From the NCBI RefSeq assembly GCF_000175255.2, contig NC_017262.1:1080001-1112000 (forward strand): DNA of 32,000 nt, written 5' to 3'. The notes beneath the pieces were generated by a model. The model searched no databases. It saw only the letters and a program-made list of their open reading frames with translations, and had not been told where the DNA came from. Source of the DNA: Zymomonas mobilis subsp. mobilis ATCC 10988. Its GTDB lineage: Bacteria > Pseudomonadota > Alphaproteobacteria > Sphingomonadales > Sphingomonadaceae. Every line of letters starts with the position of its first letter. Within the stretch, counting starts at the first letter, position 1. Shown in pieces: positions 8,392 to 24,864 of the stretch. The position numbers and the translations under genes are program-made.

Positions 8392-8474
8392 TTTTATTTT
8401 AACTTCAATTTTTTCTAATCTCTTTATTTCTGCCCACTCTTTGTTGTTGTAAATTCTGTTTTAATAGAATTTGC

Positions 8475-8981
8475 ATGACTGCTTCTTCTACTTTTAAAAT
8501 TGAATATATCATACAGGCGCGCAACCTTGCCAAATTAGGGGCAACCAATCGCGATATTGCCGATTTTTTTGGTGTGAGCGAACGCACGATCAATCGTTGG
8601 GTTTTAAAATATCCCGATTTTGCCAATGCTGTCAGAATTGGGAAAGCGGCGGCGGACAATCGGGTTGAGGCTTCGCTCTATCAAAGAGCCGTAGGCTATA
8701 GTTACGATTGCCAAAAAGTGCTGATGGTTTCCGGTAAGCCTGAAGTCGTGGAATTTGTCGAGCATCTTCCGCCCGATATTACAGCCTGTAGTTTTTGGTT
8801 ACGGAACCGCCGTCCTAAACAATGGCGGGAAAAACAAACGGCAGAAATAACCGGCCAGAATGGTGCGCCTATTTTGGCGCGTATAGAACGCGTCATTGTC
8901 GGCGAAGGGCATAGCGGATCTGATCGGCCTATATCCTCTTCGGAATGGGATAACGATCCTGTTGATATGGGAAAGATGTGA
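8475..8981 (+). CDS. Terminase small subunit
   Basis: The 168 aa ORF has an N-terminal HTH (GATNRDIADFFGVSERTINRWVLKYPDF) and a conserved ASLYQRAVGY...WLRNRRPKQWR block typical of phage TerS. It sits immediately upstream of, and overlaps, the large terminase gene. Confidence 0.8.
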   Translation: MTASSTFKIEYIIQARNLAKLGATNRDIADFFGVSERTINRWVLKYPDFANAVRIGKAAADNRVEASLYQRAVGYSYDCQKVLMVSGKPEVVEFVEHLPPDITACSFWLRNRRPKQWREKQTAEITGQNGAPILARIERVIVGEGHSGSDRPISSSEWDNDPVDMGKM

Positions 8982-10267
8982 TGTCTTTTCCGGCTTTAAG
9001 AATTCCGACCGCCAAAGTCTTTAGACCTTTATTAAAACCGGCACGCTATAAAGGCGCTTATGGTGGAAGAGGTTCCGGTAAATCCCATTTTTTCGCGGAA
9101 ATGTTGGTTGAAGATTGTCTTCGCCTTCCGGGATTGCGGGCTGTCTGTATTCGAGAAGTCCAAAAATCCCTGAAGGATTCAGCGAAAAGGCTGATCGAGG
9201 CGAAATTATCGGCATATCATTTGGGAAGCAATGTCGGTTTTCGGGTTTTTCGTGACCACATCCAAACCCCCGGCAATGGCATTATCATCTTTCAAGGGAT
9301 GCAAGACCATACCGCCGAAAGTATCAAGTCTTTGGAAGGATTCTCACGGGCATGGGTCGAAGAAGCGCAGACCCTGTCCCAACGATCTTTGGAGCTTTTA
9401 AGGCCAACCATCAGAACGATTGATTCAGAATTATGGTTTTCGTGGAATCCTCGTTTCAAAACTGATCCGGTTGACCGGATGTTGCGCGGCGAAACGCCAC
9501 CGACCGGTGCTGTTGTGGTTCAGGCTAATTGGGAAAATAACCCGTGGTTCCCCTCGCCGTTGGATCAGGAAAGGCGGGATTGCCTGGCGAATGATCCTGA
9601 TAAATACCGCCATATATGGGAAGGGGGATATGCGGAGATAACCGAGGGGGCTTATTATGCCCAAGCCTTGGCCAAAGCCCGATCTGAAAAACGGATAGCT
9701 GTCGTTGCCGCTGACCCGTTAATGACCTTGCGGGCGGTTTGGGATATCGGCGGCACGGGTGCCAAAGCCGATGCTACCGCGATATGGATTGTCCAATATG
9801 TCGGACGGGAAATCCGTTTCCTCGATCATTATGAAGCGCAAGGGCAGCCTTTATCTGCCCATCTTCATTGGTTGCGTTCGCATGATTATGGCGGGGCTTT
9901 ATGTATCCTACCTCATGATGGCGCGCAGCATGATAAAATCGCCTCGACAACCTATGAAGGCGCGTTGCGTGAAGCCGGATTTTCGGTGCGGGTTATTCCT
10001 AATCAGGGAGCCGGAGCCGCAATGCAGCGGATTGAAGCAGCTCGTCGGTTATTTCCCCAGATGTGGTTTGATGAAAATCACTGCCGTGGCGGTTTGGAAG
10101 CCCTTGGATGGTATCACGAAAAACGGGACGAAATACGAGGGATAGGGTTAGGACCCGATCATGATTGGTCAAGCCATTCCGCGGATGCTTTCGGTTTGGC
10201 GGCTATTGCTTGGGAACCGCCCGTAACGAGCCGGAAAATCACCTATAGCAATAAAGGAATATTTTAA
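8978..10267 (+). CDS. Terminase large subunit
   Basis: The 429 aa ORF has Walker A YGGRGSGKSHFFA, a WVEEAQ Walker B-like motif, and a C-terminal nuclease region (WDIGGTGAKADATAIW). The start is GTG 8978 or ATG 8981, overlapping the terS stop. Confidence 0.9.
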   Translation: MMSFPALRIPTAKVFRPLLKPARYKGAYGGRGSGKSHFFAEMLVEDCLRLPGLRAVCIREVQKSLKDSAKRLIEAKLSAYHLGSNVGFRVFRDHIQTPGNGIIIFQGMQDHTAESIKSLEGFSRAWVEEAQTLSQRSLELLRPTIRTIDSELWFSWNPRFKTDPVDRMLRGETPPTGAVVVQANWENNPWFPSPLDQERRDCLANDPDKYRHIWEGGYAEITEGAYYAQALAKARSEKRIAVVAADPLMTLRAVWDIGGTGAKADATAIWIVQYVGREIRFLDHYEAQGQPLSAHLHWLRSHDYGGALCILPHDGAQHDKIASTTYEGALREAGFSVRVIPNQGAGAAMQRIEAARRLFPQMWFDENHCRGGLEALGWYHEKRDEIRGIGLGPDHDWSSHSADAFGLAAIAWEPPVTSRKITYSNKGIF

Positions 10268-10309
10268 TGAAACGGGCTGAAAAGAGCTTTCTGCCCCGAA
10301 GGGGGCGCT

Positions 10310-12499
10310 ATGTCTTTGGATATTGATAGCAATATAGATTTGAAAGAAAAACAGGCGGATTTCTTACTTTCTAACCATGAGTTATTAGCGGTCTTGCGCG
10401 AAAAAGCCGATCAAGCAGAAAGCTGGCATAATAGTTTACTGGCTGAAGATCAGGCCAATGCTATCGATTTTTATGAAGCGCGACCCTTTGGGGATGAAGA
10501 GGACGGTCGGAGTCAGGTCGTTAGTCCCGATGTCGCCGAGGTAGTCGATTATATGACGATCAGCCTGTTACGGACGATTGTGTCAGGCGATCGCGTGATT
10601 GAATTCGAGCCGATAGCCGCCGAGCAAGCGCAAGATGCCGACGATGCGACCGAGGCGGTCAGCTATGCTTTTATGCATGGACAGGACGGCTATAAAATCT
10701 TGCATGACTGGATACAGTCGGGATTGATTGAAAAAATAGGCATTATCAAAACCGCGGTCCTATCGGAAAGACGTGCTACAATCCGTCATATTACTGTCGA
10801 TGATGATGCCTTGGCAGCTCTGTTGATGGAGGCCGAGGATAATCCCGATATTCAGATTACCTTGAATAGTGACAATGGTAGCGGCCAATATGAGGTAACC
10901 GTTACCCGTTATCAGCTTCAAAAACGCTATGTCGATATGCCGATTCCGTCCGAAGAATATCGCGTTTCGGCCAGAACCCGCCATGAAGATGATGCTGATT
11001 ATCAGGCGCATGTCAGTTATAAAACGCTGTCTGATCTTATTTCGATGGGGTTCGATCGCGATATTGTTGAGAGCCTACCAAGTGATAAGAGTTTTCCCAA
11101 TAGCGATGGCCGTTCTGATGCCAGATGGCGGGATGAATCCTTTCTGTCTGGCAGCAGCGATCAAGCCAATCGCGAAGTTCTCTTATATGAAGAATATGTC
11201 CGCATCGATCGGGATGGCGACGGCATTGCTGAATTATTGCAGATTTTTCGGGTAAAAGATGTCTTACTTTCGATTGAAGAAGTAGACGAAGCGCCCTTTG
11301 TCGTTTGGACACCTTTCCCGCGCGCCCATCGGATGATTGGTAATTCTTTGGCCGAGAAGGTTATGGATATCCAGCGGGTTAAGTCAGTGCTGATGCGTCA
11401 GGCTTTGGATGGGGTTTACCAGACCAATGCGCCCCGTATGGCGGTAAATGTCGATGGTTTAACCGAAGATACTTTTGACGATTTATTGACAATTAGACCC
11501 GGGGCGATTGTCCGTTATCGGGGTGGCATTCCACCAACGCCGTTAAATGCCGGTTTCGATATCCAAAAATCTTTGGGTATGATCGAGTATATGCAGTCGG
11601 CTCAGGAAAGCCGGACGGGGATTACCCGTCTTAATCAGGGATTGGATGCTGACAGTCTTAATAAAACCGCGACTGGTCAGGCCTTGCTTCAGGCGCAAGG
11701 GCAGCAAATGGAAGAATATGTTGCCCGCAATTTTGCACAAAGTCTTGGGCGGTTATTCCAAAAGAAATTATGGCTGATGATTGCATCGGGCGATCCGATG
11801 GCGATCAAGGTTGAAGGTCTGTATAAAACGGTTGATCCGGCTTTGTGGCCGCCGGATATGCGCGTGCGTGTCACGGTCGGATTGGGATCGGGGCGAAAAG
11901 ATCAGCGTTTGGCCTATCGTCAGCAGTTGTTATCTATTCAGCAACAGGCGTTGGCCGTTGGTTTAACCGGTTCCAAGCAGATTTATAATAATATCGCCGC
12001 GATGATCCGAGATTGTGGTTTGGGTAATCCGACTGATTATTTGATTGATCCTGATATTCGCTTGGCAGGTAATCAGGCTGAAAATCCTGTGAATAATAAT
12101 TCGGCTGCAGCGCAAAATTCTTCTGGCAGTGTAGGAAATAATCCCGATTATACAGAGTTGAAAGCCCGACAAGATATCAATCTTCAAGGGCAGAAAATGG
12201 CTGCTGATCAGGAACGGAGTATGGCCGAATTTGCTTTGAAAAAGCAGGAAACCGAGGCCAAGCTGGCGATGCAACAGGAAGAGCATAAACAGCGTTTGGC
12301 CTTGGTGCGCGAAAAAGCCGAAGAAGAGGCCATTTTAGCAAGGCAACGTTCCGATTTTGAAGCCTCGCTTGCCAAGGAAACGGCCGATCGTAATTACCAG
12401 ATCGCTTTGAAATTGGCAGAAGCTGGAAAAAATATTCCAGCGGATAAAAAGGGGGATAGGGTGCCGCAAAACAAAGCAGGGGGCGCATTGGATAAATAA
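10310..12499 (+). CDS. Portal protein (large P22-type size class, with a C-terminal coiled-coil extension)
   Basis: The 729 aa ORF follows terL and has a strong RBS (AAGGGGG). Assignment rests on size and position. The C-terminal ~130 aa are charged and helical (AEFALKKQETEAKLAMQQEEHKQRLALVREKAEEEA). Confidence 0.8.
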   Translation: MSLDIDSNIDLKEKQADFLLSNHELLAVLREKADQAESWHNSLLAEDQANAIDFYEARPFGDEEDGRSQVVSPDVAEVVDYMTISLLRTIVSGDRVIEFEPIAAEQAQDADDATEAVSYAFMHGQDGYKILHDWIQSGLIEKIGIIKTAVLSERRATIRHITVDDDALAALLMEAEDNPDIQITLNSDNGSGQYEVTVTRYQLQKRYVDMPIPSEEYRVSARTRHEDDADYQAHVSYKTLSDLISMGFDRDIVESLPSDKSFPNSDGRSDARWRDESFLSGSSDQANREVLLYEEYVRIDRDGDGIAELLQIFRVKDVLLSIEEVDEAPFVVWTPFPRAHRMIGNSLAEKVMDIQRVKSVLMRQALDGVYQTNAPRMAVNVDGLTEDTFDDLLTIRPGAIVRYRGGIPPTPLNAGFDIQKSLGMIEYMQSAQESRTGITRLNQGLDADSLNKTATGQALLQAQGQQMEEYVARNFAQSLGRLFQKKLWLMIASGDPMAIKVEGLYKTVDPALWPPDMRVRVTVGLGSGRKDQRLAYRQQLLSIQQQALAVGLTGSKQIYNNIAAMIRDCGLGNPTDYLIDPDIRLAGNQAENPVNNNSAAAQNSSGSVGNNPDYTELKARQDINLQGQKMAADQERSMAEFALKKQETEAKLAMQQEEHKQRLALVREKAEEEAILARQRSDFEASLAKETADRNYQIALKLAEAGKNIPADKKGDRVPQNKAGGALDK

Positions 12500-12798
12500 T
12501 GGAGCAAGATCCCATTTTGCGGGCAAGGCGTTGGAAAGCCTTTTATGAAGAAAAGGGCGGGTTGAAAGCTATTTTGCAAGAAATCGGCACCCGTTATATC
12601 CAGCGTATGTCCGAGATTGCCCCATGGGAAGCCGAAGCTGACCGAAAATTATTACGTTTGGCGATGGCTAATCGAATTGTGGGGCAAATTGATAACTTGA
12701 TTCAAGTGATTATTGCAGATGGGCAATTGGCTGATCAGGCCAAAGAACATGCCCGAAAAATAGAGAATTTACCCGAGCGAAAACGTCGCTGGCTGTAG
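12499..12798 (+). CDS. Hypothetical phage protein
   Basis: The 99 aa ORF has a start overlapping the portal stop (TAATG). No motif was recognised. Confidence 0.5.
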   Translation: MEQDPILRARRWKAFYEEKGGLKAILQEIGTRYIQRMSEIAPWEAEADRKLLRLAMANRIVGQIDNLIQVIIADGQLADQAKEHARKIENLPERKRRWL

Positions 12799-12914
12799 GC
12801 CGAGCTATCAAGGTCTTCATTCTATTTATTGAGAAAAAACCGGCTGGGTGGCTGGAAAGAGAGTCACCGGAGTGATCTTCTGCGCCCATTTTACCGGTTG
12901 GACATTCAGGAATA

Positions 12915-13772
12915 TTGATAATGACAAATATAAAAGGCGCAGCCTTGAGGCGACCTCGTCGGTCTATTCAGGAAGCTGCCGAAGCATTGCAAGCCAATTT
13001 GGCACCGGATCAGGATGATCCGATGGCTGGAAATAATGCGGATATGCCGCCATCCGATCAGGCATCCGAGGATCAGAGCAACATGGGCGCAACGGCAGCA
13101 GGAAATGGTGCCAATCAAGGAAATGGTCAGCCAGACATGAGTGCGGCTTGGCAAGAACATTGTCGAGCCTTGCATTACCATTATGCCGACCAGCTTGCTA
13201 AATATGCCGAAGCGATTACCCCGAAAAAACCTGATCCGCAGTTATTGGTCAGTGATCCGGCAAGCTATGCCGCACAATTGGCAAGTTATGAAGACTTAAC
13301 GGCCAAGCGTGACCAAATTGTTCAGGAAGTTATCCAGATTTCTCGCCAGAATGAAATGGCTGAACTGGCTGCCAGAAGAGCATGGGCGCAGGGCGAACAT
13401 CAGCGTTTGATATCGCTTTTGCCTGAATGGGGCGATGATAATCAGAGACCGGCTATCTTGGCGGCTTTTGAAGAAACGGGACGGCATCTCGGTTATCCAG
13501 ATCATGTTTTGGCCGAGGCTGATTCCAACGACATTATGGCTTTGAAAAAAGCCCATGAATGGCGAAGAAAATCCGAAAAATGGGATGCCCTACAACAGGG
13601 TAAGGCGGCGGCTATCAAATCAGCCAAAACATCGAGAAAAACCGCAGTTCCAGGAACGTCCCAGCCTTATGGCGCGGCCAAAAGCCGGAAACTGAATGAA
13701 TCATTGGGGCAGCTTCGCGAAACTGGTGATGTCCGGTCAGCCGCCGCGGCGATGAACGCCCTTTTTAAATAA
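12915..13772 (+). CDS. Putative scaffolding protein
   Basis: The ORF lies between the portal and major capsid genes. It is acidic, Ala/Gln-rich, helical and low-complexity. The likely start is ATG 12921, preceded by AGGA. Confidence 0.55.
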   Translation: MIMTNIKGAALRRPRRSIQEAAEALQANLAPDQDDPMAGNNADMPPSDQASEDQSNMGATAAGNGANQGNGQPDMSAAWQEHCRALHYHYADQLAKYAEAITPKKPDPQLLVSDPASYAAQLASYEDLTAKRDQIVQEVIQISRQNEMAELAARRAWAQGEHQRLISLLPEWGDDNQRPAILAAFEETGRHLGYPDHVLAEADSNDIMALKKAHEWRRKSEKWDALQQGKAAAIKSAKTSRKTAVPGTSQPYGAAKSRKLNESLGQLRETGDVRSAAAAMNALFK

Positions 13773-13797
13773 TCTACTTTTCAAGGAATTTTGAATT

Positions 13798-13887
13798 ATG
13801 TCTGTTGCCTCTAATACCGTCCAAACCTATTCGCGTGTCGGTATTCGTGAAGATCTTTCCGATATTATTTATAATATCAGCCCGACT
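13798..13887 (+). CDS. Major capsid protein, exon 1 (30 codons)
   Basis: The ATG at 13798 is preceded by AAGGAA. It encodes MSVASNTVQTYSRVGIREDLSDIIYNISPT, the conserved N-terminus of an HK97-fold capsid family. Unspliced, the frame reaches a stop 6 codons later (TAA 13903-13905). Confidence 0.75.
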
Positions 13888-14264
13888 GGAGTCTTGGTCC
13901 GTTAATGTAGTTTATACGCTGCATTAAATGAAAAGGCGGTGAATTCGGGGGACGTCCAACCGTCATAGACGAGGATAATCCCGAGCCAAGCTTGAGGTGA
14001 AAATCTCTTGAAGGTGTAACGACTAACAGCCGAGCCTACCGACAAAAAACGATAAAACTGATGCCGTTATTTCTGAAAAAGAAGCGGGTATGATTCTTTT
14101 CATTTTTACTGAAAATGCCGGAAATTTCGGAAGAAATATTTCAGTCTTTTTTGTCCATGGCAGTAATGCTGACACGAGTGCCGCCCGCGAAAGCGATGAT
14201 ATAGTCTGAGCCTTGCAGGAATGTAAGGAAGCAAGGGATAAAGAGCCTTTGCGGTAACAATCTG
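13888..14264 (+). ncRNA. Putative self-splicing group I intron (ORF-less, 377 nt) interrupting the major capsid gene
   Basis: Exon 1 ends in U, which can form a U.G pair in P1 (GACU 13884-87 / GGUC 13896-99). The intron ends in G (14264). A P2 hairpin lies at 13902-10/13919-27. Strings resembling the conserved core elements are P AAUUCGGGGG (13942-51), Q AAUCCCGAGCC (13977-87), R GUAACGACUAACAG (14016-29) and S GAUAUAGUC (14198-206). P4 (UUCGGG/CCCGAG) and P7 (GACUA/UAGUC) can pair. A P9 hairpin lies at 14211-16/14231-36. Excision restores the reading frame. Confidence 0.75.
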
Positions 14265-15152
14265 GAAACACCTTTTGTAACAGCTATCGGTCAAACGACA
14301 GCCAAAAATACCTATACCGAATGGCAGACCGACAATCTTGCCAGCGCTAATGCCCAGAATAAACAGGTCGAAGGGGCTGATCTTGCCAATGAAAGCCGTC
14401 AGCCAACGGTCCGGGTCGGCAATTATACCCAGATCATGACCAAAGTTGTCGGGACATCGACGACCGATCGGGCGGTGCATAATGCCGGACGCGGTGATGA
14501 ACATGCCTATCAGTTGGCACGTGCTGGTCAGGAATTGAAACGCGATATTGAGGCGCGCTTTACCGGTAATTTTGCAGCCATTCCCGGAGATGGGGCAGTC
14601 GTCGCGCGTGAAACAGCAGGAGCTTTGGCATGGCTGCGCAGTAATGCCCATCGTGGCGACGGCGGTGCTAATCCGGTGATGTCCGGTGGCGATAATGGCA
14701 GCGGTTATCCGACAACCGCGGCGACCGCAGGTAAGGCGCGGCTTTATACCGAGGCTTTGTTAAAAGAAGTTTTGGGCGATATCTGGGTCAGTGGTGGTCA
14801 GCCAAATATGGTGATTACCTCTTTGAAACTGAAACAGACGGCAGCAGCCTTTCCGGGGTTGGCTTCCAACCGGCGCGATACGGGCGACCAGAAAGCGCGT
14901 ATTATTGCCGGTGCGGATATCTATGTTTCCGATGTCGGCGAAGTCCAGTTTGTACCTGATCGTTTTTGCGACAATAGCAGCGCTTTGGTCATTGACCCTG
15001 AATATTGGTCGGTTGCGACCTTAGATCCGATTCAGAAACGGTCTTTGGCAACAACGGGGCTGGCTGATCGTGATGCCCTTTATACTGAAATTGCCTTGCG
15101 CTGCCATAATGAAGCAACCTCCGGTGTTTTGGCAGATTTAAGCGCTGCCTGA
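14265..15152 (+). CDS. Major capsid protein, exon 2 (295 codons plus stop)
   Basis: The frame of ORF 14436..15152 stays open upstream to 14205. From 14265 it encodes ETPFVTAIGQTTAKNTYTEWQTDNLASANAQNKQVEGADL...GNYTQIMTKVVGTSTTDRAV...AYQLARAGQELKRDIE, which is typical of this capsid family. Joined to exon 1 it gives 325 aa. Confidence 0.8.
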   Translation, partial: ETPFVTAIGQTTAKNTYTEWQTDNLASANAQNKQVEGADLANESRQPTVRVGNYTQIMTKVVGTSTTDRAVHNAGRGDEHAYQLARAGQELKRDIEARFTGNFAAIPGDGAVVARETAGALAWLRSNAHRGDGGANPVMSGGDNGSGYPTTAATAGKARLYTEALLKEVLGDIWVSGGQPNMVITSLKLKQTAAAFPGLASNRRDTGDQKARIIAGADIYVSDVGEVQFVPDRFCDNSSALVIDPEYWSVATLDPIQKRSLATTGLADRDALYTEIALRCHNEATSGVLADLSAA

Positions 15153-15287
15153 TTTTCGTGATCGGGAGGATGTCTTCTTGCAAGGCATCTTCCCGTAAAA
15201 ATTCGGAAAGGGAATATTCCATGGCTTTTTCTTCTGCCTTGGTCGCCTTTTTCAAAAAAAAGGTCGGGCTGGGCTTGAAATGCGGCT

Positions 15288-15632
15288 TTGATATTCGAGG
15301 CCATGATGGCTGCTGAACGTTTGTTATCCTATAATCCGGTGACGGGGCTTAAAAGTTGGTTCTCCTCTTCAGAGGAGAATCAGGGCAGTTGGCATATCCG
15401 CTATGAACAGGATTGTTCTGCGGCTTTGGAAGCCAATAAACAGGCACAAAATGAAGATTTTGATCGGCGTTCTTCGATGTGGCACGCCGCCCATGTTCCC
15501 GCCGTCGTTTTGATGGAATGGCTGGTGAAATATGGTGTCCGATATTGGGACAAAAATCACGCGCCTGCCGTTCGCCGTTTACTCAATCATCCTGATTATC
15601 GCTATTTGCGCGTTAATCACTTTATTATGTGA
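15288..15632 (+). CDS. Hypothetical phage protein
   Basis: The ORF is 114 aa. A start at ATG 15303/15306 is more likely than 15288. It sits in the head-completion region of the cluster. Confidence 0.5.
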   Translation: MIFEAMMAAERLLSYNPVTGLKSWFSSSEENQGSWHIRYEQDCSAALEANKQAQNEDFDRRSSMWHAAHVPAVVLMEWLVKYGVRYWDKNHAPAVRRLLNHPDYRYLRVNHFIM

Positions 15633-15641
15633 GCATGGCTG

Positions 15642-16301
15642 ATGGCTCTTTTTATTGATGCCCAAAATCTGGACAGTCTCACCCGTTATGATGGCCTCTT
15701 AAAGGCGATTGCCTTGTGGTTGGAACGCGATGATCTGGCCGACGAAATCCCTTATTTCGTGCAACTGGCAGAAGCCCGTTTTCGGCGATTGTTGACTAAT
15801 CCCGAATTGGAAACCGAAATAACGGTAGCGGCAGGCTGTCCTGTTGCGTTGCCGGATGATTTTGAGGCCTTGCGCCTGCTTTATCCGGCAGGCGGTCGTC
15901 GCGATCGGGCTTTTTTGCAGCTGCCGCCAGATGTTTTTCAGCAGGGCAAGCATCAGAATAAATCTGTTTTCACCCTGATCGCAGGGCAATTATGGATATC
16001 GCCTCTTCCTGAAACAGAAACGGCTTTTTCGTTGGTCTATCGTGCGGCTTTGCCGTCTTTATCCTTGAATCGCCAGAGTAACTGGCTGTTGACGTCCCAT
16101 CCCGATATTTATTTATTCGGGTCGTTATTACAGGCCGAGTTCTTCGGATGGAATGACAGCCGTTTGCCGGTCATTAAATCGGCGCTGGATGAAGCCTTGG
16201 GCGAGTTAAATAAAGCAGGATTGCGCAAGCGTTATGCAGAAAGCACCTTGGTTGCGCCATCGCCTGTCGTGGAAGCGGTGAAAGGCACTTACCGATGGTA
16301 A
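15642..16301 (+). CDS. Hypothetical phage protein, candidate head-tail adaptor (positional call only)
   Basis: The 219 aa ORF is coupled to the downstream gene by an ATGGTAA overlap. Its position after the capsid is analogous to podovirus head-completion or adaptor proteins. Confidence 0.4.
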   Translation: MALFIDAQNLDSLTRYDGLLKAIALWLERDDLADEIPYFVQLAEARFRRLLTNPELETEITVAAGCPVALPDDFEALRLLYPAGGRRDRAFLQLPPDVFQQGKHQNKSVFTLIAGQLWISPLPETETAFSLVYRAALPSLSLNRQSNWLLTSHPDIYLFGSLLQAEFFGWNDSRLPVIKSALDEALGELNKAGLRKRYAESTLVAPSPVVEAVKGTYRW

Positions 16302-17716: not shown

Positions 17717-17961
17717 TGCTGCGCTTACCGATCGCCGCTACTTCTGTCGCGGATTGGATGCGGCGGGCGGCAATGGCCGTCAACAATTTGATGACGAATG
17801 TTGAACAGCAATCCAGTCAGATGGAGAGCCGTTATCATTGTCCGATACCCGCCAGTGATAACGCGCCGGATAATCCTGAAAAAGGACAGTGGTTTTTCAA
17901 TAAAACCAGCCAAAAAGCGATGATGTGGGATGGCACCCAATGGCAAAATCTGTGGGAATAA
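17713..17961 (+). CDS. Small phage protein
   Basis: An ATGA overlap with the upstream stop gives an 82 aa product. The C-terminal GQWFFNKTSQKAMMWDGTQWQNLW resembles the 'WxDGxxW' motif seen at phage fibre termini. Confidence 0.45.
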   Translation: MMLRLPIAATSVADWMRRAAMAVNNLMTNVEQQSSQMESRYHCPIPASDNAPDNPEKGQWFFNKTSQKAMMWDGTQWQNLWE

Positions 17962-18008
17962 AGAACGCAGATTATCGGTTGGCTGTTTTGAAAACGGATA
18001 AGCGAAAA

Positions 18009-18443
18009 ATGGAAATTGGTATGATTGCCCGTCCTTTGGAATGGGCAGGATGGTCTGCTGCCCGTGATTTTTTAGAACCGGCTTTGCAGCGTTCAGATGA
18101 AAGTTGGGCGGATATTTTGCCTGAACTGGAAGATGGCCAATTACAATTATGGGCGGTTCTACAGCCGGATTCAGCCCTAAAAAAACGCGATATTCTCTAT
18201 GCCGCCGCCGTGACCCGTATTGTTGCCAGTCGTGAAGGTGAAATTGCCGAAATCTATCTGGTGGGTGGTCGTGATTTCGAATTCTGGCTGTCTGATTTAT
18301 CCGAAACCATCGCCCGTTCAGCCCAAGAAATCGGCTGTATCGCGGTCAGAGCCTATGGCCGGACAGGATGGCGGCGGCCTTTGGCAAAATTAGGGTGGCG
18401 GGAAAAAACGGTAGCCTATGAAAAAGCGTTAAAGGAAAAGTGA
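18009..18443 (+). CDS. Hypothetical phage protein
   Basis: This is the 3' part of track ORF 17925..18443. Plausible starts are ATG 18009 or 18021, after the upstream gene ends at 17961. No function was recognised. Confidence 0.4.
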   Translation: MEIGMIARPLEWAGWSAARDFLEPALQRSDESWADILPELEDGQLQLWAVLQPDSALKKRDILYAAAVTRIVASREGEIAEIYLVGGRDFEFWLSDLSETIARSAQEIGCIAVRAYGRTGWRRPLAKLGWREKTVAYEKALKEK

Positions 18444-19115
18444 ATGAGCAAGAAAAGCAAGGCGACAACGGCACCGAGCCGGTTTGCCCGTCCTTATATC
18501 ACGAATAGTGCCAATGCTATCCAGCAAGCCTATAGCGATAATCAGGATAATGTAAGCAATATCAATAGTTTATTGCAGAATAACATCGGAAATGTTGCCA
18601 GTAAAACCCTGAATAACAGTGATATGGATCAGGCTGATACCTATAACCAGTCTGTCTTATCGGGAAAATATCTTTCCCCGTCATCCAATCCCGCTTTGTC
18701 TGATATTATCAAGAATACCAATCAGGATGTTTCGGATAGCGTCAATGGCGCGATTGGGACAAGAGGTCTGACGGGAGGTTCTGCCCAAGCGCAGTTATTA
18801 GCGAAAGAGTTGGGTCAGACAGACAGCAACCTTCTTTATAATAATTACAATACCGAGCGAGGCTATCAACAGCAGGCCTCTGAAAATGCTGCCAATTTGG
18901 GCGATGCGCGGAATAGTAGCATCAATACCCTTGGTAACTATCTGACAACGACAGCAGCTTTGCCGCAATCCTCCTTTTCGGTGCTGGCAAGCAATATGGC
19001 TTCGTTATTGGGCAATTATAACACCACAACCCAAAATCAGGGCATCGGGTCAACCTTGGCCAGTTTAGCTGGGGCGGGATTGTCAGGCTGGGCTTCCAGC
19101 GGTTTTAAAGTTTAG
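18444..19115 (+). CDS. N/S/Q-rich virion protein, candidate internal or ejection protein
   Basis: The 223 aa ORF starts immediately after the upstream stop (TGAATG). It has a low-complexity polar composition and a C-terminal Gly/Ala/Ser hydrophobic tail (GIGSTLASLAGAGLSGWASSGF). Confidence 0.45.
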   Translation: MSKKSKATTAPSRFARPYITNSANAIQQAYSDNQDNVSNINSLLQNNIGNVASKTLNNSDMDQADTYNQSVLSGKYLSPSSNPALSDIIKNTNQDVSDSVNGAIGTRGLTGGSAQAQLLAKELGQTDSNLLYNNYNTERGYQQQASENAANLGDARNSSINTLGNYLTTTAALPQSSFSVLASNMASLLGNYNTTTQNQGIGSTLASLAGAGLSGWASSGFKV

Positions 19116-19127
19116 GAGTCTTTTCAA

Positions 19128-19802
19128 ATGGCGATATCTTTCGGAAATAAAATCAATCAAAATGATGTATTAAATCAGGATGGTTCCGCTCTTAAAAAGG
19201 CGATTAATAGCTTTAGTGATAGCCCTGTTTTTGCATCAGAGCCGATCGAGCAAAAACCAATCAACGATATGGAACCGTCTATTACCTCTCCATCGCCTAT
19301 CAATGGTTATGGGAGTGGAGGCGAAGAAACGCCGATGCCGGAGACGGCTTCTACTACACCGCAAGCGGAGCAACACCCGTCGCCTCATTTTTTCTCGGCG
19401 GGTGGAATAGGCAAGCGGATTGCTGGTGTAATCGGTGACGCCTTATTATTGGCCAATGGCCGCTATCCGCTCTATTTACCTGCGGTAATGGAGCATAATC
19501 GTCGTATCGACCAACAAAATGCCCAGCAACAGCAACGAGATTTTAGCAATAATCTCGCTACTTCGAAATTAAATCAGCAGCAGGCAAATATGGCCGATAA
19601 AGCGGCTAAGCCACAATATCATTTCGGAGCTGATGGGCGGGTTCTGTCTCTCAACCCTATGACAGGAGAGGCGACCCAGATACGCGATCCTGATATGCCG
19701 CTGCCTAGCGAGCATGAACGGATGATTAGTCATATCGTCAATCTTCCGGCGAATGATCCGGAAAGGAAAGCCATTGAACGATTGCTTTTTAAGAATAAAT
19801 AA
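19128..19802 (+). CDS. Q-rich hypothetical virion protein
   Basis: The 224 aa ORF is preceded by AGGAG 6 nt upstream of the ATG. It has Pro/Ser-rich and poly-Q segments (QQNAQQQQRDF, NQQQANM). Confidence 0.45.
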   Translation: MAISFGNKINQNDVLNQDGSALKKAINSFSDSPVFASEPIEQKPINDMEPSITSPSPINGYGSGGEETPMPETASTTPQAEQHPSPHFFSAGGIGKRIAGVIGDALLLANGRYPLYLPAVMEHNRRIDQQNAQQQQRDFSNNLATSKLNQQQANMADKAAKPQYHFGADGRVLSLNPMTGEATQIRDPDMPLPSEHERMISHIVNLPANDPERKAIERLLFKNK

Positions 19803-19981
19803 CATCCATTTTGGATATTATTTTTAAATTAATCCTTAAAATGTTGGATTTATTATAAGAATATCACAATAGATACTTTGGGTATCGGGATTTTTTGTAA
19901 GTAAAATCCAATGTAATCGAAATGTAATCATTAAAATATTTATTTATTTTATGCTCTTATAAGGAGGGGTAGGGCTGCGCT
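19803..19981 (+). promoter_or_regulatory. AT-rich intergenic gap inside the phage cluster with tandem 11 bp direct repeats. It is a putative internal promoter or operator for the tail-fibre module
   Basis: This is the largest non-coding gap in the cluster (179 bp). It contains AATGTAATCGA/AATGTAATCAT in tandem (19910-19931), repeated TTGGAT(A/T)TTATT motifs (19811, 19845), and a strong SD (AAGGAGG) before ATG 19982. Confidence 0.45.
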
Positions 19982-20350
19982 ATGTCTTTTTCGGACTGGT
20001 CGCAAAATGCAGATAGTAACAGCAATATTGGCGGGATCAGTATTGCTGAAGGCTGTCCACCGGGCAATCTTAACAATGCCTTGCGCGAGATAATGGCTGA
20101 AATGCGGTCTGCTATCAATCAGGCTATGGATACGGCCTTGAGCTCGGCTGATATGGCGAGTTTTCGTCAGGCTATTGGGGCTTTGGCGAATAGTGGTGAC
20201 ACTATTGACGGCGTTTTGCGCCGTAAAGGTCAGGGAGTTTTCCCTTATTTTGCCGATGGTTCTTTTTCCGGTGGCCGGATTTATGTGACCAATAGTCAAG
20301 CGGCTGACCCGACAAGTCAGCCGGGGGATATCTGGTTGGTCTATGTATGA
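19982..20350 (+). CDS. Tail fibre-associated protein (conserved alphaproteobacterial phage fibre N-terminal motif)
   Basis: The 122 aa ORF begins MSFSDWSQNADSNSNIGGISIAEGCPPGNLNNALREIMAEMRSA. This matches the 'WS..A..N....GI.I.EG..P..(V/L)NN..R..MA' N-terminus I recall from alphaproteobacterial phage and prophage fibre proteins. Confidence 0.55.
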   Translation: MSFSDWSQNADSNSNIGGISIAEGCPPGNLNNALREIMAEMRSAINQAMDTALSSADMASFRQAIGALANSGDTIDGVLRRKGQGVFPYFADGSFSGGRIYVTNSQAADPTSQPGDIWLVYV

Positions 20351-20793
20351 CTATCAGCCTTAAAGATCAGGATAATTTTTCCCGCGAGATAAGAGCTGTT
20401 TCAATCAGGGGAGCCGATGGCGTGCTTCATTCTGTCGGATCTATTCGTATCCGTGGGCAGGATGAAAGCTTGCATGAGGTCTTTTGCCACAAGCTGGATG
20501 TCTCGGTTTCTGACGCTTTGATAGAAAGCTATTCCCGTCATAATCCTGTGATTTCTTCTGCGGTGACGGTTCAGGTTTCGGGCGGTGTTCCGCCTTATCA
20601 ACATCGCTGGTCTTTGGTGAGTAGCGATAGAGCCGATAGCGTGATGGCTCTTTCTCCTTTTTCGGCAACAACGACTTTTCGAGCCGATGGCGTGCCTCAT
20701 CACCATGCCGCATCAGCCTATTTGCGTGACGATGTTACCGATCAGAATGGCTTTGCCGGTTCGGTTGAAGTCCATTGTATTTTTACGAGGTAA
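20347..20793 (+). CDS. Hypothetical phage tail protein
   Basis: The 148 aa ORF has an ATGA overlap with the upstream gene. Confidence 0.45.
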   Translation: MTISLKDQDNFSREIRAVSIRGADGVLHSVGSIRIRGQDESLHEVFCHKLDVSVSDALIESYSRHNPVISSAVTVQVSGGVPPYQHRWSLVSSDRADSVMALSPFSATTTFRADGVPHHHAASAYLRDDVTDQNGFAGSVEVHCIFTR

Positions 20794-20797
20794 TTTC

Positions 20798-21199
20798 ATG
20801 CGTAAATATTTTGACAGCGTGGCGAGCGCGCTTGACGGGAAGCCGGTCATGGGTGCCTTGATTTTCGTCTATAAAACAGACGGTAGTCTGGCTTCCCTTT
20901 TTTCTGATGATGGAACGACCGCTATTTCCCAGCCTTTGCGGACGGATAGTCTCGGATATTTCGAATTTTATGTTGCGGATGGTCTTTATGATTTGACCAT
21001 TTCCTATGGCGGCAAAATTCGGACGCGTCTTTCTGGCGTTCAAATTTATGATGAATCCCATCTGCAAGGGGGCGGGGCAGCCTTGCCCGACGGCACCCGT
21101 ATTGCCGAATTGCCGGTCGCAGCCATGAACAAGGCTTTGGGTGCGGCCGGAAACTTAGCCCAATTTATCAAAAATTATTCTAATAATTCTATGGAGTGA
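20798..21199 (+). CDS. Hypothetical phage tail protein (small beta-sandwich-like)
   Basis: The ATG at 20798 is preceded by GAGG 7 nt upstream. The track ORF start at 20687 would overlap the previous gene. The product is 133 aa and includes GALIFVYKTDGSLASLFSDDG...GYFEFYVADGLYDL. Confidence 0.5.
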   Translation: MRKYFDSVASALDGKPVMGALIFVYKTDGSLASLFSDDGTTAISQPLRTDSLGYFEFYVADGLYDLTISYGGKIRTRLSGVQIYDESHLQGGGAALPDGTRIAELPVAAMNKALGAAGNLAQFIKNYSNNSME

Positions 21200-21203
21200 T
21201 GCC

Positions 21204-22205
21204 ATGTCTACTTTAACGATTTCGGAAATGACCGATGCAGGATCGGTTACCGAAGATGATTTGATTGAAATTTCCCGTCCGGTTGCCAATGGTTATGCAA
21301 CCTATAAAGCCAAAATCGGCTATATTAAAAATCTGACGACCAATTATGATTCCGTCATTGCCGCTTTGGGGCATGAACCGGTGAGCGTTGATTTAAGCAA
21401 TTTTAACGCCGCAACCTTCCAGCAGAAAGTAGCGATTTCTTACGGCCAGATTACCAAAGGCCTCGGCTATGAGCCGATGAATGTCGATTTCAGTAATTTC
21501 AACGGATCCACTTTCCAGCAGAAAGTGACGCTGTCCTATGGCCAGATTACCGGTGGTCTGGGATATGAACCGGCCAATAAAGACTTGTCTAATATTGATG
21601 GCATGGGTCTGGTCTCAAAAATCAATGCTGTCCGAGGTGCTGCACCGGTTTTGACGACCGGGGGTGAACTGACTGGTAATCTCAATCCGGCTTCAGATGG
21701 TGTGATTACCTTGGGACAGCCTAACCGTAAATGGGCTGAAATCTATGCTTCGAATGGGGCAATTAACACCTCGGATGCCCGTCAGAAGATGGATATTGCT
21801 TCTGTCCCTGATGAGGTTCTGGATGTCTGGGGCAATCTGTCATGGCGGCAGTTTAAATTCAGAAAAGCGGTTGAGACCAAAGGCTTTGATAAGGCGCGCT
21901 GGCATTTCGGTCTGATCGCTCAAGAAGTCGAAGATGCCTATAAAAATGCGGGCTTGGATGCCGAAAGTCTGGGCATGATTTGTCATGACCATTGGGAAGC
22001 CCATACTCGCCGTGAAAAAACCGGTAATATGGGTAAAAATGGCAAGCCGGTCTATCGCGATGTCTTGGTGCCAGCCGGTGAAGCCTATGGTTTGCGCTAT
22101 AGCGAATGTCAGGCGATCGAAGCCGCATGGCAGCGGCGTGAAATTATTCGGCAGCAGGCTGAAATTGACGCTTTGAAAGCGCAGCTCACCCAAGCACAGG
22201 CTTAA
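21204..22205 (+). CDS. Tail fibre protein with a C-terminal intramolecular chaperone (peptidase S74) domain
   Basis: The 333 aa ORF contains LGQPNRKWAEIYASNGAINTSDARQKMDI...WRQFKF...RWHFGLIAQEV, the S74 auto-cleaving chaperone signature (SDxRxK, Ser at 21771-73). It also has an internal 32 aa tandem repeat and a C-terminal coiled coil. Confidence 0.8.
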   Translation: MSTLTISEMTDAGSVTEDDLIEISRPVANGYATYKAKIGYIKNLTTNYDSVIAALGHEPVSVDLSNFNAATFQQKVAISYGQITKGLGYEPMNVDFSNFNGSTFQQKVTLSYGQITGGLGYEPANKDLSNIDGMGLVSKINAVRGAAPVLTTGGELTGNLNPASDGVITLGQPNRKWAEIYASNGAINTSDARQKMDIASVPDEVLDVWGNLSWRQFKFRKAVETKGFDKARWHFGLIAQEVEDAYKNAGLDAESLGMICHDHWEAHTRREKTGNMGKNGKPVYRDVLVPAGEAYGLRYSECQAIEAAWQRREIIRQQAEIDALKAQLTQAQA

Positions 22206-22209
22206 GATA

Positions 22210-24864
22210 ATGACAGCTTCTCCGGCACCTTTTATTCCTGACCATCCTGATATCTATCTGCTTTCCGGCGATGGGCTGGTTCGCAATAACATGCATGTCG
22301 AAGACGGGCGGGCAGGCTATCTGCCTAATGATACTTCGACCAGTGAAAGTCAGGCTTTGTTAGCGCGTGGATATGCCCGTTATTATCTCGCTTCTGGGGA
22401 TGTAAAAGCCCTCAATAATGCCCGAAAATTGGCGGACGCCGCATTGAGTTACTTCTTTGCCGGAAAAACGCCACCTGCAAGCGGGTTATGGTATCATCAT
22501 TGGGTGGTGAATGCAGGGCAGGGCTTTAACGTCAAAGGCCCCTCTAATCCCAATGGTCATGCCTATGACGGGAATGTCGGAGAAACTGTTACCTTTAAGG
22601 ACGGGAAGGCTCAACTTCCCGCCAGTCTTGCCAATGTTTATAATGTTTTTCAGGGAGAACTAAGCTGGCAAAATGTCTATGCCGATCTATCCAAAGGGCA
22701 GTTTTTTGACATAGATTATTTTGTTGATCGTGATGGCTATATTTTCCGCTGGCAAAGCGGATATGCGGCGGATGTTGTTTTTACATCGGAGGCACAGCCT
22801 CAGACCGCTATTCCGGCGGGCTGTTTGCAGATGAAAAATACTGCCTTGAATGGTCAATATCAGGTTAGTTATTCGCTCTATCAAGAAGACACTATTCCCT
22901 ATGCCAGCCAATTTGAAGGCTGGCCGATGTGGCGGCATTTGATGCCGGATGAACAGGTTATGGCAGGCGATGCCATTCATTGGTTTATTGATCTGTTTTA
23001 TCTGATGCAGGCGATTGATACAGACAATAGCGCCAAATGGGAAAGCTCTTATCAGGCGATGCTGGCTTTATGGCAAGAGGCCTGTGTTTTGACTTCATCA
23101 GAGACCTGTTTTTTCAAGCGTTCTACTATCGGCACCTATGATAGTTGGCCTTTGACCTATTTTTACGCCTATGCTGACGGGAATATTTCTTATACTCCGC
23201 CAACCGATTATTGCCGCTATGGTCGGGATAAAACGAGCGGGGTCGCTTATTTCGATCTACCTGAACACAGCCATCGCTTGGGATGGGTGTTTCAAAATGA
23301 CGCTTTGAATTTAGGTATTACGCCTGATTTGAATGTAGCGGTTGAAGCGGCGGCCTCTCGATCGACCAATTTGGCCGTTATTTTGTCGGACGATCAGAAA
23401 CGGCAATATAAATATAATTTTTGTCCTGATACGACTGTTCAAAGCTATAGCCTGCCACTGCAACAATTTATGGATTATACCGATGTTGCCGAATGGGTGC
23501 CGGGGAATACTGATTTTGTTTATGGCACGGCAACTGCCACCACTGAACGCCTGACAACGGCAGAGGGGCGGGCAGTGATGGCGCGTCATTATGTTTTGTC
23601 TGATAGTTCTGCGGGTGTCGGCTTTGCTACGGCTGCCTCCAATCAAACATGGAGTGGGGCAGAGGCTTTGGCCTTGTCCTATATAACAGACAGCAGTCAT
23701 ATTATATTGGTTGTAGTCGATAATTCAGGATGGCATTGGCAGGTGACTTTGCCAGCGAATGCCGATGCAACTTTACAGAGTTTTCCTTGGGCGAATTTTG
23801 TTCTTGCTGGATATCAGACTAATAAAGCCCCATTTCCCGATAAGCCAGATAGCACGGCACCGATAAAAACGGTTCAATTCCAGATAGCCAGTGATGTAAA
23901 AACACCGCAAACGCTTTATCTGGTAGCCGCTTATAATAAAATGCCGGCTAAAATAGCGGATCAGGCGAAAATTATTTCCGCGCGTGTTTTTTCTAGCTGT
24001 GCGGATGCCGTGACTATTCAAATCGGCAATGCCTCGATTGAAAAGGCGACGACGATAAGACAACCCTATTCCCCCGGGTTGCTGCCTTTCCAGCATGCGA
24101 CCATCGGATCGGGACGCTCTCCTTCTGGGGGTGGTGGTCTATGGCAAGGCCCCGCCTATATCGGTTATCAGAATCCGGTGCCTTGGATGCTATTAAATCG
24201 GCATGATGAAGCCTGTAACATGCTGCAATTGATGCAGGATTCTCAAAAACATTATACGGCACAAAATCAGGCTGCCTTAACGGGGCCTTTTACGCCTTGC
24301 TATATTTTTGCCCAATGGGATGCCGAACAATATGGCGCGCCTTATAATTTTATCTTTGGAGGCCCCGATCCCAACTGGGGCTGGGGTGGATTCCAATATC
24401 GGGCTTTTCATAACGTCGCCGATTATTGGGCTAGAATGACTTCGGCTTCTGTCATCGCAAAAGCCGACGGAAATTCGGCTCAAAAAGCAACGGCTTTAGC
24501 AAAAGACATTGCCAGTTCTTTTATGGATTGGTTAGTCGATTGGCTGGATAGTAATCCAGAGGCACGATCCTTGCCTGCGCTATTTCTTTCCAGTCAGGCA
24601 CCTGAAATAAAGGGAGATAATCCCGATCAGACAGCACTGGCTTTGAAAGGCGCTTTATGGTGCGGGCAGGCCGGTTATGACAAAACCAAGGCGGAAAAAA
24701 CTGTCGAGCGTCTTTATGCCATGCTGCAAAACTTTCAGATATCTGACGGCGATATGGCAGGAAGCTATTCACCGCAGCCGGAAGAGCATCGCTTTTATGG
24801 TTTCTGGGCGGGAGAAATTTTGGATGCTTTAAGTGTGTACGCGCTTGCCCGTGCATCTTTTTAA
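22210..24864 (+). CDS. Large hypothetical protein (884 aa) coupled to the tail-fibre genes, candidate tail-associated glycan-binding or depolymerase protein
   Basis: It starts 4 nt after the tail-fibre stop on the same strand. No signal peptide or TM segment is evident. It is aromatic/Trp-rich, and its C-terminal third is helical-repeat-like (..YRAFHNVADYWARM.., ..ALKGALWCGQAGY.., ..FYGFWAGEILDALSVYALA). Confidence 0.5.
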   Translation: MTASPAPFIPDHPDIYLLSGDGLVRNNMHVEDGRAGYLPNDTSTSESQALLARGYARYYLASGDVKALNNARKLADAALSYFFAGKTPPASGLWYHHWVVNAGQGFNVKGPSNPNGHAYDGNVGETVTFKDGKAQLPASLANVYNVFQGELSWQNVYADLSKGQFFDIDYFVDRDGYIFRWQSGYAADVVFTSEAQPQTAIPAGCLQMKNTALNGQYQVSYSLYQEDTIPYASQFEGWPMWRHLMPDEQVMAGDAIHWFIDLFYLMQAIDTDNSAKWESSYQAMLALWQEACVLTSSETCFFKRSTIGTYDSWPLTYFYAYADGNISYTPPTDYCRYGRDKTSGVAYFDLPEHSHRLGWVFQNDALNLGITPDLNVAVEAAASRSTNLAVILSDDQKRQYKYNFCPDTTVQSYSLPLQQFMDYTDVAEWVPGNTDFVYGTATATTERLTTAEGRAVMARHYVLSDSSAGVGFATAASNQTWSGAEALALSYITDSSHIILVVVDNSGWHWQVTLPANADATLQSFPWANFVLAGYQTNKAPFPDKPDSTAPIKTVQFQIASDVKTPQTLYLVAAYNKMPAKIADQAKIISARVFSSCADAVTIQIGNASIEKATTIRQPYSPGLLPFQHATIGSGRSPSGGGGLWQGPAYIGYQNPVPWMLLNRHDEACNMLQLMQDSQKHYTAQNQAALTGPFTPCYIFAQWDAEQYGAPYNFIFGGPDPNWGWGGFQYRAFHNVADYWARMTSASVIAKADGNSAQKATALAKDIASSFMDWLVDWLDSNPEARSLPALFLSSQAPEIKGDNPDQTALALKGALWCGQAGYDKTKAEKTVERLYAMLQNFQISDGDMAGSYSPQPEEHRFYGFWAGEILDALSVYALARASF

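Follow-up and report, generated by a model that had tools for sequence, protein, structure and literature searches.

How a bacterium comes to carry, tightly packed among its housekeeping genes, the genes for the head and short tail of a phage, and none of those by which a phage integrates, replicates or lyses its host, is the question raised by a block of 16.4 kb in Zymomonas mobilis subsp. mobilis ATCC 10988. The block lies at 8475-24864 of the 32,000-nucleotide stretch analysed here (NC_017262.1, positions 1,080,001 to 1,112,000 of the forward strand; 'the window' in what follows, with all coordinates counted from its first nucleotide). We are confident that it represents an anciently domesticated, selectively maintained particle locus. 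The host probably uses this cluster, most likely as a gene-transfer-agent-like (GTA-like) particle, since it is kept at the same spot under strong selection in every lineage examined. That both hold together, a domesticated and maintained locus which acts as a GTA-like particle, we consider somewhat favoured, and for true GTA-type transfer of DNA by the particles the chances seem about even.

Through homologs of the portal and of the last tail protein of the cluster, five Zymomonas lineages were recovered: the window strain together with ZM4 (where these two genes are ZMO0380 and ZMO0400), NCIMB 11163 and the CP4-type and ATCC 29191-type strains; the metagenome-assembled genome (MAG) W26 (L018; portal identity 94%); a Logan assembly (89%); strain AN0101 with another MAG (86%); and subsp. 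pomaceae (77%). In all five the order is the same: levansucrases, lon and an alkA-like gene, then the cluster from terS to the gene of an 884-aa tail protein, followed by a GGDEF-EAL gene, rlmE and ppx. Internal gene order and both boundaries are unchanged throughout, there is no extra phage gene at the ends, and integrase, lysis or replication modules adjoin the cluster in none of the Zymomonas lineages examined. The contigs include one of 1.98 Mb from the AN0101 isolate and one of 168 kb from pomaceae, which argue against chimeric MAG or Logan assemblies as the source of the identical boundaries. A preliminary description of this DNA had suggested domestication and had pointed to synteny at lon/alkA, and to contiguous early and lysis modules in other strains, as the observations that would speak for and against it; the former was found in all five lineages and the latter were not seen in any of those examined. 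The insertion is not datable by synteny, as the two Sphingomonas genomes with the closest rlmE offer no empty site: they contain ppx-rlmE without adjoining GGDEF-EAL, alkA, lon or phage genes.

Position is not all that has been kept. In Nei-Gojobori estimates over ten lineage pairs, the pooled ratio of nonsynonymous to synonymous divergence (dN/dS) amounts to 0.049-0.087 for the cluster and 0.053-0.064 for the flanking housekeeping genes, with single cluster genes ranging from 0.014 (capsid) to 0.25 (a 167-aa protein). The dS of the cluster rises with that of lon, from 0.43 (lon 0.16) in the closest pair, the window strain and the W26 MAG, through 0.94-1.35 (lon 0.86-1.00) in the intermediate pairs to 2.2-2.8 (lon 1.65-1.9) in pairs with pomaceae, the values being rough where dS exceeds 1 and is saturated, as in most pairs; in the two pairs of least divergence dN/dS comes out the same. 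All 19 genes are unbroken in every lineage examined. One to two synonymous changes per site, spread over 19 genes and without a single disrupted open reading frame (ORF), indicate selective maintenance in the host. The dN/dS comparison put forward in the preliminary description has therefore come out as purifying selection similar to that on the flanks, and together with synteny it supports the domestication proposed there. In base composition the cluster is fully ameliorated to its host: GC content at third codon positions is 0.46 as against 0.45 in the flanks, codon usage correlates with r = 0.87, and the portal genes of relatives outside the genus have 57-66% GC. Divergence is fastest in the receptor-binding genes, the fibre retaining 57% and the tail protein 67% identity to pomaceae as compared with 92% for the capsid. 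Between the window strain and L018, the cluster dS of 0.43 is nearly three times that of lon (0.16) and about twice that of alkA (0.23); codon bias in lon or between-strain exchange of cluster alleles could account for this excess.

The genes themselves, delimited by ORF listing and family searches, are co-oriented on the plus strand and occupy 94.6% of the block (intron excluded); at six junctions neighbouring genes overlap, and at a further four they are 0-4 nt apart. From upstream to downstream, the block consists of the following features.

8475-8981, plus strand: small terminase subunit TerS, 168 aa (phrog_309, 1.3e-44), with an N-terminal HTH_23 domain at residues 17-43 (3.9e-6); dN/dS 0.055-0.11.
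8981-10267, plus strand: large terminase subunit TerL, 428 aa (Terminase_3, 6.5e-28); the ORF opens at GTG 8978 and the start overlaps the terS stop; dN/dS 0.016-0.028.
10310-12499, plus strand: portal of the SU10 type, 729 aa (PF23899 SU10_portal, 3e-177; ZM4 ortholog ZMO0380).
12499-12798, plus strand: conserved protein of 99 aa, no family match; homologs also follow the portal gene in relatives; dN/dS about 0.03.
12921-13772, plus strand: head scaffolding protein, 283 aa (phrog_3927, 5.9e-14); the ORF opens at TTG 12915.
13798-13887, plus strand: major capsid protein, exon 1, 30 codons, last nucleotide U (junction match to uninterrupted relatives).
13888-14264, plus strand: very probable group I intron, 377 nt, no ORF, last nucleotide G (Rfam RF00028).
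14265-15152, plus strand: major capsid protein, exon 2, 295 codons and stop (spliced product of 325 aa matching PF17236 SU10_MCP); capsid dN/dS 0.014-0.027, the minimum of the cluster.
15306-15632, plus strand: conserved virion-module protein, 108 aa (phrog_3982, 3.5e-13); homologs lie between the capsid and adaptor genes in relatives.
15642-16301, plus strand: head-to-tail adaptor, 219 aa (PF24175 SU10_adaptor, 1.8e-25; PDB matches to the head-to-tail adapter 9nwi, 1.4e-12, and to the SU10 adaptor 7z47, 6.6e-9).
16295-17716, plus strand: tail nozzle, 473 aa (phrog_3287 virion structural protein, 3.8e-61; PDB 8zkk 'nozzle gp16', 2.7e-5).
17713-17961, plus strand: protein of 82 aa, weak PHROG matches; homologs at the same position in the relatives L029 and L031-L033.
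17940-18443, plus strand: protein of 167 aa (phrog_7642, 9.5e-5); dN/dS 0.10-0.25, the maximum of the cluster.
18444-19115, plus strand: N/Q/S-rich protein of 223 aa, no family match, homologs in relatives; dN/dS 0.038 against the AN0101 lineage.
19128-19802, plus strand: N/Q/S-rich protein of 224 aa, no family match, homologs in relatives.
19982-21199, plus strand: three small proteins of the tail/fibre module, 122, 148 and 133 aa, conserved in all Zymomonas lineages with the region recovered; weak matches to SprB (148 aa) and CarboxypepD_reg (133 aa); dN/dS 0.08-0.16.
21204-22205, plus strand: tail fibre, 333 aa (Peptidase_S74, 1.1e-15; phrog_7121 tail fiber, 8.1e-55), its C-terminus being an intramolecular chaperone domain (Peptidase_S74).
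22210-24864, plus strand: tail protein of 884 aa, last gene of the cluster (phrog_2871, 3.7e-128; ZM4 ortholog ZMO0400).

The matches to SU10_portal, SU10_MCP (1.6e-88) and SU10_adaptor each pass the curated cut-off and, taken together with the nozzle, identify the block as the structural module of an SU10-type podovirus. Tube, sheath and tape-measure families have no match among the cluster proteins, which leaves a portal-adaptor-nozzle architecture as in short-tailed phages. Compared with the portals of isolated phages, mostly LUZ24-like Pseudomonas podoviruses, the portal reaches 28-31% identity. The annotation of ZM4 lists the terL ortholog ZMO0379 as the large subunit of a PBSX-family terminase (PMC8237431, PMC1931599). 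Position and composition suggest that the proteins of 223 and 224 aa are probably internal or ejection proteins. The 167-aa protein was considered as a glucosaminidase, an assignment that we rejected, as it has no similarity to the glucosaminidase at the same position in Sphingomonas relatives. Within the fibre gene, a tandem duplication of 96 nt (21373-21564, 74% identity) gives rise to 32-aa repeats, and the pomaceae ortholog measures 371 aa instead of 333, so that repeat number may differ by lineage. The 884-aa protein would probably be a receptor-binding or depolymerase protein; it has no sequence relative in PDB, and an AlphaFold2 model built on an alignment of seven sequences was unusable (mean pLDDT 50, pTM 0.39). 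A homolog with 46% identity ends a siphovirus-type tail module (tube, 1489-aa tape-measure) in L011, a contig of Logan SRR22103699, which indicates that this receptor-binding module moves between phage morphotypes.

What the block lacks is equally characteristic. Pfam and PHROG-type family searches returned no integrase, repressor, replication or lysis family in the cluster or directly beside it, no direct repeat flanks 8475-24864 in a repeat search at the block edges, and none of the cluster proteins has a hydrophobic segment resembling a transmembrane helix. With integrase, attachment-site repeats, repressor switch, replication module and lysis cassette all missing in and beside the cluster, it is not an intact temperate prophage. 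Nor is it a tailocin, since it encodes capsid, portal, scaffold and the two subunits of the terminase, capsid and terL being among the most constrained genes. PADLOC detected no defence system in the cluster, and scans of its unannotated proteins with NCBIfam and PADLOC gave nothing meaningful and no toxin, immunity or cargo gene; retention of the locus is therefore not explained by genes of this kind. The neighbours are two levansucrase genes, tRNA-Val, lon and the HhH-GPD (alkA-like) gene upstream, and the convergent GGDEF-EAL gene, rlmE (FtsJ), ppx and tRNA-Gln downstream. Only 83 bp separate the block from the alkA-like gene and 9 bp from the GGDEF-EAL gene, and the two tRNAs (4947-5021 and 29114-29187) are the sole Rfam matches at gathering thresholds in the whole window. 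On all these points the preliminary description was borne out: about 20 co-oriented ORFs in late-operon order, many of them translationally coupled, no tape measure, tube or sheath, no integrase, repressor, replication or lysis genes, the same two gaps, no flanking repeats and no abutting tRNA.

It erred on the capsid gene. All ORFs had been taken as intact and the capsid ORF had been placed at 14436-15152, which is really just the 3' part of a gene split by a frame-changing insert of 377 nt. Exon 1 encodes the conserved N-terminus of the capsid protein (…REDLSDIIYNISPT), and reading resumes in another frame at 14265 (ETPFVTAIG…). The spliced protein of 325 aa matches SU10_MCP over positions 5-291/292, and the junction YNISPT/ETPFVTAIG (the slash marking the exon border) is letter-identical to that of uninterrupted relatives. 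By its sequence the insert is very probably a group I intron, and the capsid gene would be expressed via self-splicing. The hallmarks of such introns are present: in the splice context ...CCGACU/GGAG...AAUCUG/GAAACA the exon ends with a U that pairs with a G in P1, the intron ends with G, and excision restores the frame. P1 is formed by the 5' exon end and an internal guide sequence (GACUGG with CUUGGUC), the 5' splice site being marked by the canonical U.G pair. The full Rfam model Intron_gpI (RF00028) scores the window copy at 45.1 bits (E 2.8e-10; gathering score 50), found just in a permissive search of 13780-14380, and the orthologous introns of pomaceae and the AN0101 lineage at 52.2 and 50.1 bits. 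The minimum-free-energy fold of the single sequence is not significant (z = -1.6), so that comparative evidence is required. This comes from the five Zymomonas lineages, all of them interrupted at the identical codon: the intron measures 377, 402, 412 and 433 nt in the four lineages measured, variation is concentrated in the peripheral loops, hardly any is seen in the catalytic core, and compensatory changes affect 15 predicted pairs in lineages with a coding dS of 0.9-2.5. That the ribozyme has been kept is independent evidence of a continuing need for the capsid protein.

Group I introns of phages (RF00028) share with the Zymomonas intron the U at the exon end, the U.G pair in P1, the final G and a match to the full core, and they too interrupt a conserved stretch of an essential phage gene. 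The Zymomonas intron differs in that it is without an ORF and lies in a gene vertically inherited by a bacterial genus. Outside Zymomonas, one of about 35 relatives has an interrupted capsid gene, at a different codon: in the metagenomic prophage L015 (14004-15827), about 870 nt including a LAGLIDADG-type ORF follow codon 48, without an Rfam match. Mobile introns may target the capsid gene repeatedly in this group of phages. We found no report of the Zymomonas intron in the searched literature.

Where the module came from can be read from its relatives. SU10-type prophages of Sphingomonadaceae and IMG/VR phages of about 40 kb (L015, L025-L038, IMGVR_UViG_3300017645_000008) possess a homologous late module in the same order, from terL and portal through a small protein, scaffold, capsid, a second small protein, adaptor and nozzle to the internal proteins, with protein identities of 30-73% to the cluster. 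In contrast to Zymomonas, these relatives are mosaic, reside at unrelated loci, have 57-66% GC and, except for L015, an uninterrupted capsid gene; S24 repressors, helicase-primases, RusA and methylases are encoded ahead of their terminase genes, and the tailspike gene is followed by an endolysin. The 20 genomic relatives outside the genus, mostly from Sphingomonas, Sphingobium, Sphingopyxis and Pelagerythrobacter, are all mosaic, and none lies near homologs of lon, alkA, GGDEF-EAL or rlmE. A scan upstream of the module in 12 relatives revealed Peptidase_S24 repressors (4), AAA_25 helicases (5), DnaB (3) and HTH_36 (3), as well as VapE, methylases and VRR-NUC. In L015 a CI-like repressor, RusA and a primase-helicase precede terL, portal and the genes onward, and in one viral contig of 40 kb a GH108 endolysin that includes a PG_binding_3 domain comes next after the tailspike gene; the longest related IMG/VR contigs have 40-44 kb. 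Judged by these gene orders, the Zymomonas block corresponds to the terS-to-fibre segment of such a phage, cut off precisely at either end. Among the viral contigs and genomes searched, none outside Zymomonas has a portal exceeding about 59% identity, and no close free phage that might re-seed the locus was found in these collections. Two of the relatives, L012 (Sphingomonas sp. ASY06-1R) and L014 (a Sphingomonas MAG), have the late module interspersed with cellular-looking genes (DUF4287, PAP2 phosphatase, GDSL or DUF4886-like, TMP-TENI-like), and 3.5 kb separate terL from the portal gene. They could be prophages rich in morons or a further case of partial domestication; as regards an older and wider domestication, their upstream ORFs have no informative match and the loci are not syntenic with that of Zymomonas.

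Published transcriptomes of ZM4 make clear that the cluster is transcribed and regulated. Expression of ZMO0379, 0395 and 0397 at 30 °C exceeds that at 45 °C (PMC8237431), and phenolic aldehydes induce ZMO0384, 0388 and 0391 (PMC4578398). In low-Mg medium ZMO0381 is down-regulated, ZMO0383 and 0389 also appearing in the data (PMC7487341), and a plasma-treated mutant shows increased expression of a phage terminase large subunit and of a putative phage major head protein (PMC10273749). Genes of the range ZMO0378-0400 are often differentially expressed alongside the neighbouring levansucrase genes ZMO0374 and ZMO0375. Descriptions of the cluster as a GTA, a domesticated element or a particle producer were not encountered in the searched literature.

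From these data, the following course of events may be envisaged. The late module of an SU10-type temperate podovirus would have entered the Zymomonas ancestor between the alkA-like and the GGDEF-EAL gene and would have lost all early, integration and lysis functions, the host retaining the rest as a working gene set. The capsid pre-mRNA would be repaired by self-splicing of the group I intron, procapsids would be built from scaffold, capsid and portal, and TerS and TerL would fill them with DNA. Since the locus can neither excise nor replicate, packaged DNA would have to come from the chromosome or the plasmids of the host. Adaptor, nozzle, internal proteins and fibres, all of them conserved across lineages, would complete a short-tailed particle, which might be released through lysis genes encoded elsewhere and deliver host DNA to other Zymomonas cells. 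Particle production, packaging, release and delivery are what we infer from the genes.

The cluster has several of the properties by which GTAs are recognised: chromosomal, phage-derived particle genes devoid of autonomous replication, integration or excision functions, inherited vertically and under purifying selection. Several observations nevertheless weigh against a GTA-like particle, in addition to the saturation of dS mentioned above. Lysis genes and regulators were not found within the 32-kb window, and the searched literature contains no report of Zymomonas particles of this kind. TerS retains its HTH DNA-binding domain, so that packaging may start at a specific site and not at random, whereas the TerS of FpGTA, the GTA-like element of Faecalibacterium prausnitzii, is without an obvious DNA-binding domain and GTA terminases are typically non-specific (PMC12946183). 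The capsid protein has the same length as in relatives, with no sign of head reduction; given relatives of 40-44 kb, a headful could hold the whole 16.4-kb cluster, which fits poorly with a strict definition of GTAs. Finally, constraint on the terminase fits a PBSX-like killer particle equally well, as tail attachment may need filled heads. As a tentative possibility, the cluster could represent an independent GTA family derived from an SU10-type podovirus, with directional packaging of the chromosome from a site in or near the cluster and a head of probably about 40 kb. If true, it would be an anchored lateral-transduction engine that carries its own 16.4-kb locus together with neighbouring host genes and whose capsid supply depends on an intron.

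The cluster might instead be the late module of a split virus, supplying virions to a replicating partner (a plasmid, another chromosomal site or a satellite), in which case particles would mainly carry partner DNA rather than random host DNA. Sequence-specific packaging, as suggested by the HTH domain of TerS, would suit such a division of labour, and lysis and regulation must in any case be encoded elsewhere. Six cluster genes (ZMO0383, 0387, 0388, 0392, 0397, 0398) are moreover down-regulated in ZMNP, the ZM4 derivative from which all four native plasmids have been removed (PMC9816438), pZM36 has phage genes, and other data sets show co-regulation of prophage genes on plasmids (PMC8237431; bioRxiv 10.64898/2026.05.23.727408). 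The phage genes named for pZM36, however, are of myovirus type (tail sheath, tail tube and a small terminase of its own; PMC8237431) and not the missing podovirus modules, and a search of PLSDB yielded no plasmid with DNA in common with the cluster. The chromosomal region ZMO1920-1952, formerly regarded as a prophage, was rejected as the missing early and lysis half, being a high-GC conjugative element specific to ZM4 (PMC6870993, PMC3964314). A partner would also need to have co-existed with the cluster in five lineages across dS above 2, and we regard a split virus as unlikely.

Improbable, in our view, is likewise a PBSX-like killer or other non-transfer particle serving strain competition, with packaged DNA as a by-product of assembly. 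PBSX does package host DNA yet acts as a bacteriocin, and the same question has been raised for FpGTA (PMC12946183). The rapid divergence of the receptor-binding genes relative to the capsid fits strain-specific targeting. On the other hand, the constraint on the putative ejection protein of 223 aa (dN/dS 0.038) fits delivery of a genome, and the cluster contains neither toxin nor immunity gene. We also know of no short-tailed killer particle. That the block is what remains of a prophage, recently truncated or in neutral decay and without host function, the plain alternative of the preliminary description, is hardly credible: it lacks early, integration and lysis genes as remnants do, but identical boundaries in five lineages, dS of 0.4-2.8 that tracks lon, 19 genes intact everywhere with dN/dS of 0.05-0.09, an intron and a hairpin conserved with compensatory changes and an ameliorated composition all contradict it, as an unselected remnant would have lost ORFs at such divergence.

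A domesticated particle locus invites comparison with known systems, first of all with the RcGTA type of Rhodobacter capsulatus, Caulobacter and Dinoroseobacter. Both are contiguous head-to-tail clusters of about 15-16 kb running from terS to the fibres in an alphaproteobacterial host, without integrase, replication or lysis genes inside, vertically inherited and under purifying selection. RcGTA is siphovirus-like, with a tape-measure gene, a long tail, a head capacity of about 4 kb and a TerS without DNA-binding specificity; its particles and DNA transfer are proven, those of Zymomonas putative. The two are not homologous: in Zymomonas we find SU10-type portal, capsid and adaptor with a nozzle, an HTH-bearing TerS and no sign of head reduction, and no match to the tape-measure and tube genes of the siphovirus set. 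Sphingomonadales have another conserved prophage-like element, presumably the RcGTA-like cluster. This element is reported to be missing from seven Z. mobilis genomes (PMC5381585). GTAs in general have been described elsewhere (PMC12946183, PMC9662315).

Another such system is FpGTA, reported in 2026 as a GTA-like element from short-tailed-phage genes, with particles of about 40 nm and 8.4-8.9 kb of DNA demonstrated by experiment (PMC12946183). It likewise comprises terS, terL, portal, scaffold and capsid, is near-ubiquitous in one genus and has its lysis genes outside the head operon, but it belongs to a Gram-positive host and is divided into two operons (10.5 and 5.5 kb, about 125 kb apart), the second with holin and endolysin (PMC12946183). 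Measured against this description, Zymomonas has a single block of 16.4 kb with fibres, no nearby lysis genes, an HTH-bearing TerS and a capsid intron. This precedent weakens the novelty which the preliminary description had expected of a domesticated particle of podovirus type; the Zymomonas cluster is independently derived, the idea of a podovirus-like GTA as such is not without example.

Defective prophages of the PBSX type, finally, are myovirus-like and have their own repressor and lysis genes in the locus. The Zymomonas cluster resembles them in being chromosomally fixed, kept by the host and equipped with a Terminase_3 terminase ('PBSX family' in ZM4, PMC8237431), and it differs in having no repressor, lysis or myovirus tail genes.

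Control of the cluster may involve three sites, each a candidate only.

8451-8472, plus strand: perfect palindrome AAATTCT-N8-AGAATTT, its end 2 nt from the terS ATG.
15164-15194, plus strand: GC-rich hairpin with compensatory changes, directly after the capsid stop.
19803-19981, plus strand: AT-rich gap of 179 nt before the fibre module, containing CTTAAAATGTTGGATTT.

The palindrome is kept in three mobilis-type lineages and degenerate in pomaceae; it could serve as an operator or as an element of translation control. The stem of the hairpin is held by compensatory changes in four lineages while its sequence differs between them, and it is a putative partial terminator or mRNA stabiliser that would set capsid mRNA levels. 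CTTAAAATGTTGGATTT is conserved even in pomaceae, which makes the gap a candidate promoter or control site. Matches to promoter and terminator consensus sequences are not enriched relative to shuffled sequence (28 against 27.0 and 25 against 20.3), and for this reason no promoter is claimed.

Farther upstream, at 980-1336 on the minus strand, a 118-aa HTH protein with weak matches to CII/CP76 (Pfam, 5e-4) and to phage repressors in PHROG (about 3e-3) is encoded in an AT-rich stretch (GC 0.29-0.35 at 1000-2500), and a gene of similar size occupies the same position in pomaceae (L001, 993-1358, minus strand). As the transcriptomes show the cluster co-varying with the adjacent levansucrase genes, this protein is a possible regulator of the cluster. 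The alkA-like gene is bracketed by a 19-nt direct repeat (AATAAAAATTTCT[A/G]CTGAT, 18/19 identical, at 7727-7745 and 8374-8392) and has 55% amino acid identity to pomaceae, as compared with 89% for lon; the repeat may be due to chance or may be a trace of the arrival of this gene.

For those annotating genomes, the intron means that the capsid gene is mis-called as two ORFs, and it raises the question why a host retains, genus-wide, a self-splicing intron in a domesticated capsid gene. For strain engineers, the locus would mean that horizontal transfer, or lysis of cells, can take a hitherto unnoticed route in production strains. Whether short-tailed domesticated particles transfer DNA, and whether an HTH-bearing TerS gives directional packaging, are questions that become testable here. 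A GTA-like particle of Zymomonas would represent one more origin, from another type of phage, in an alphaproteobacterium that has a small genome, is genetically tractable and serves industry.

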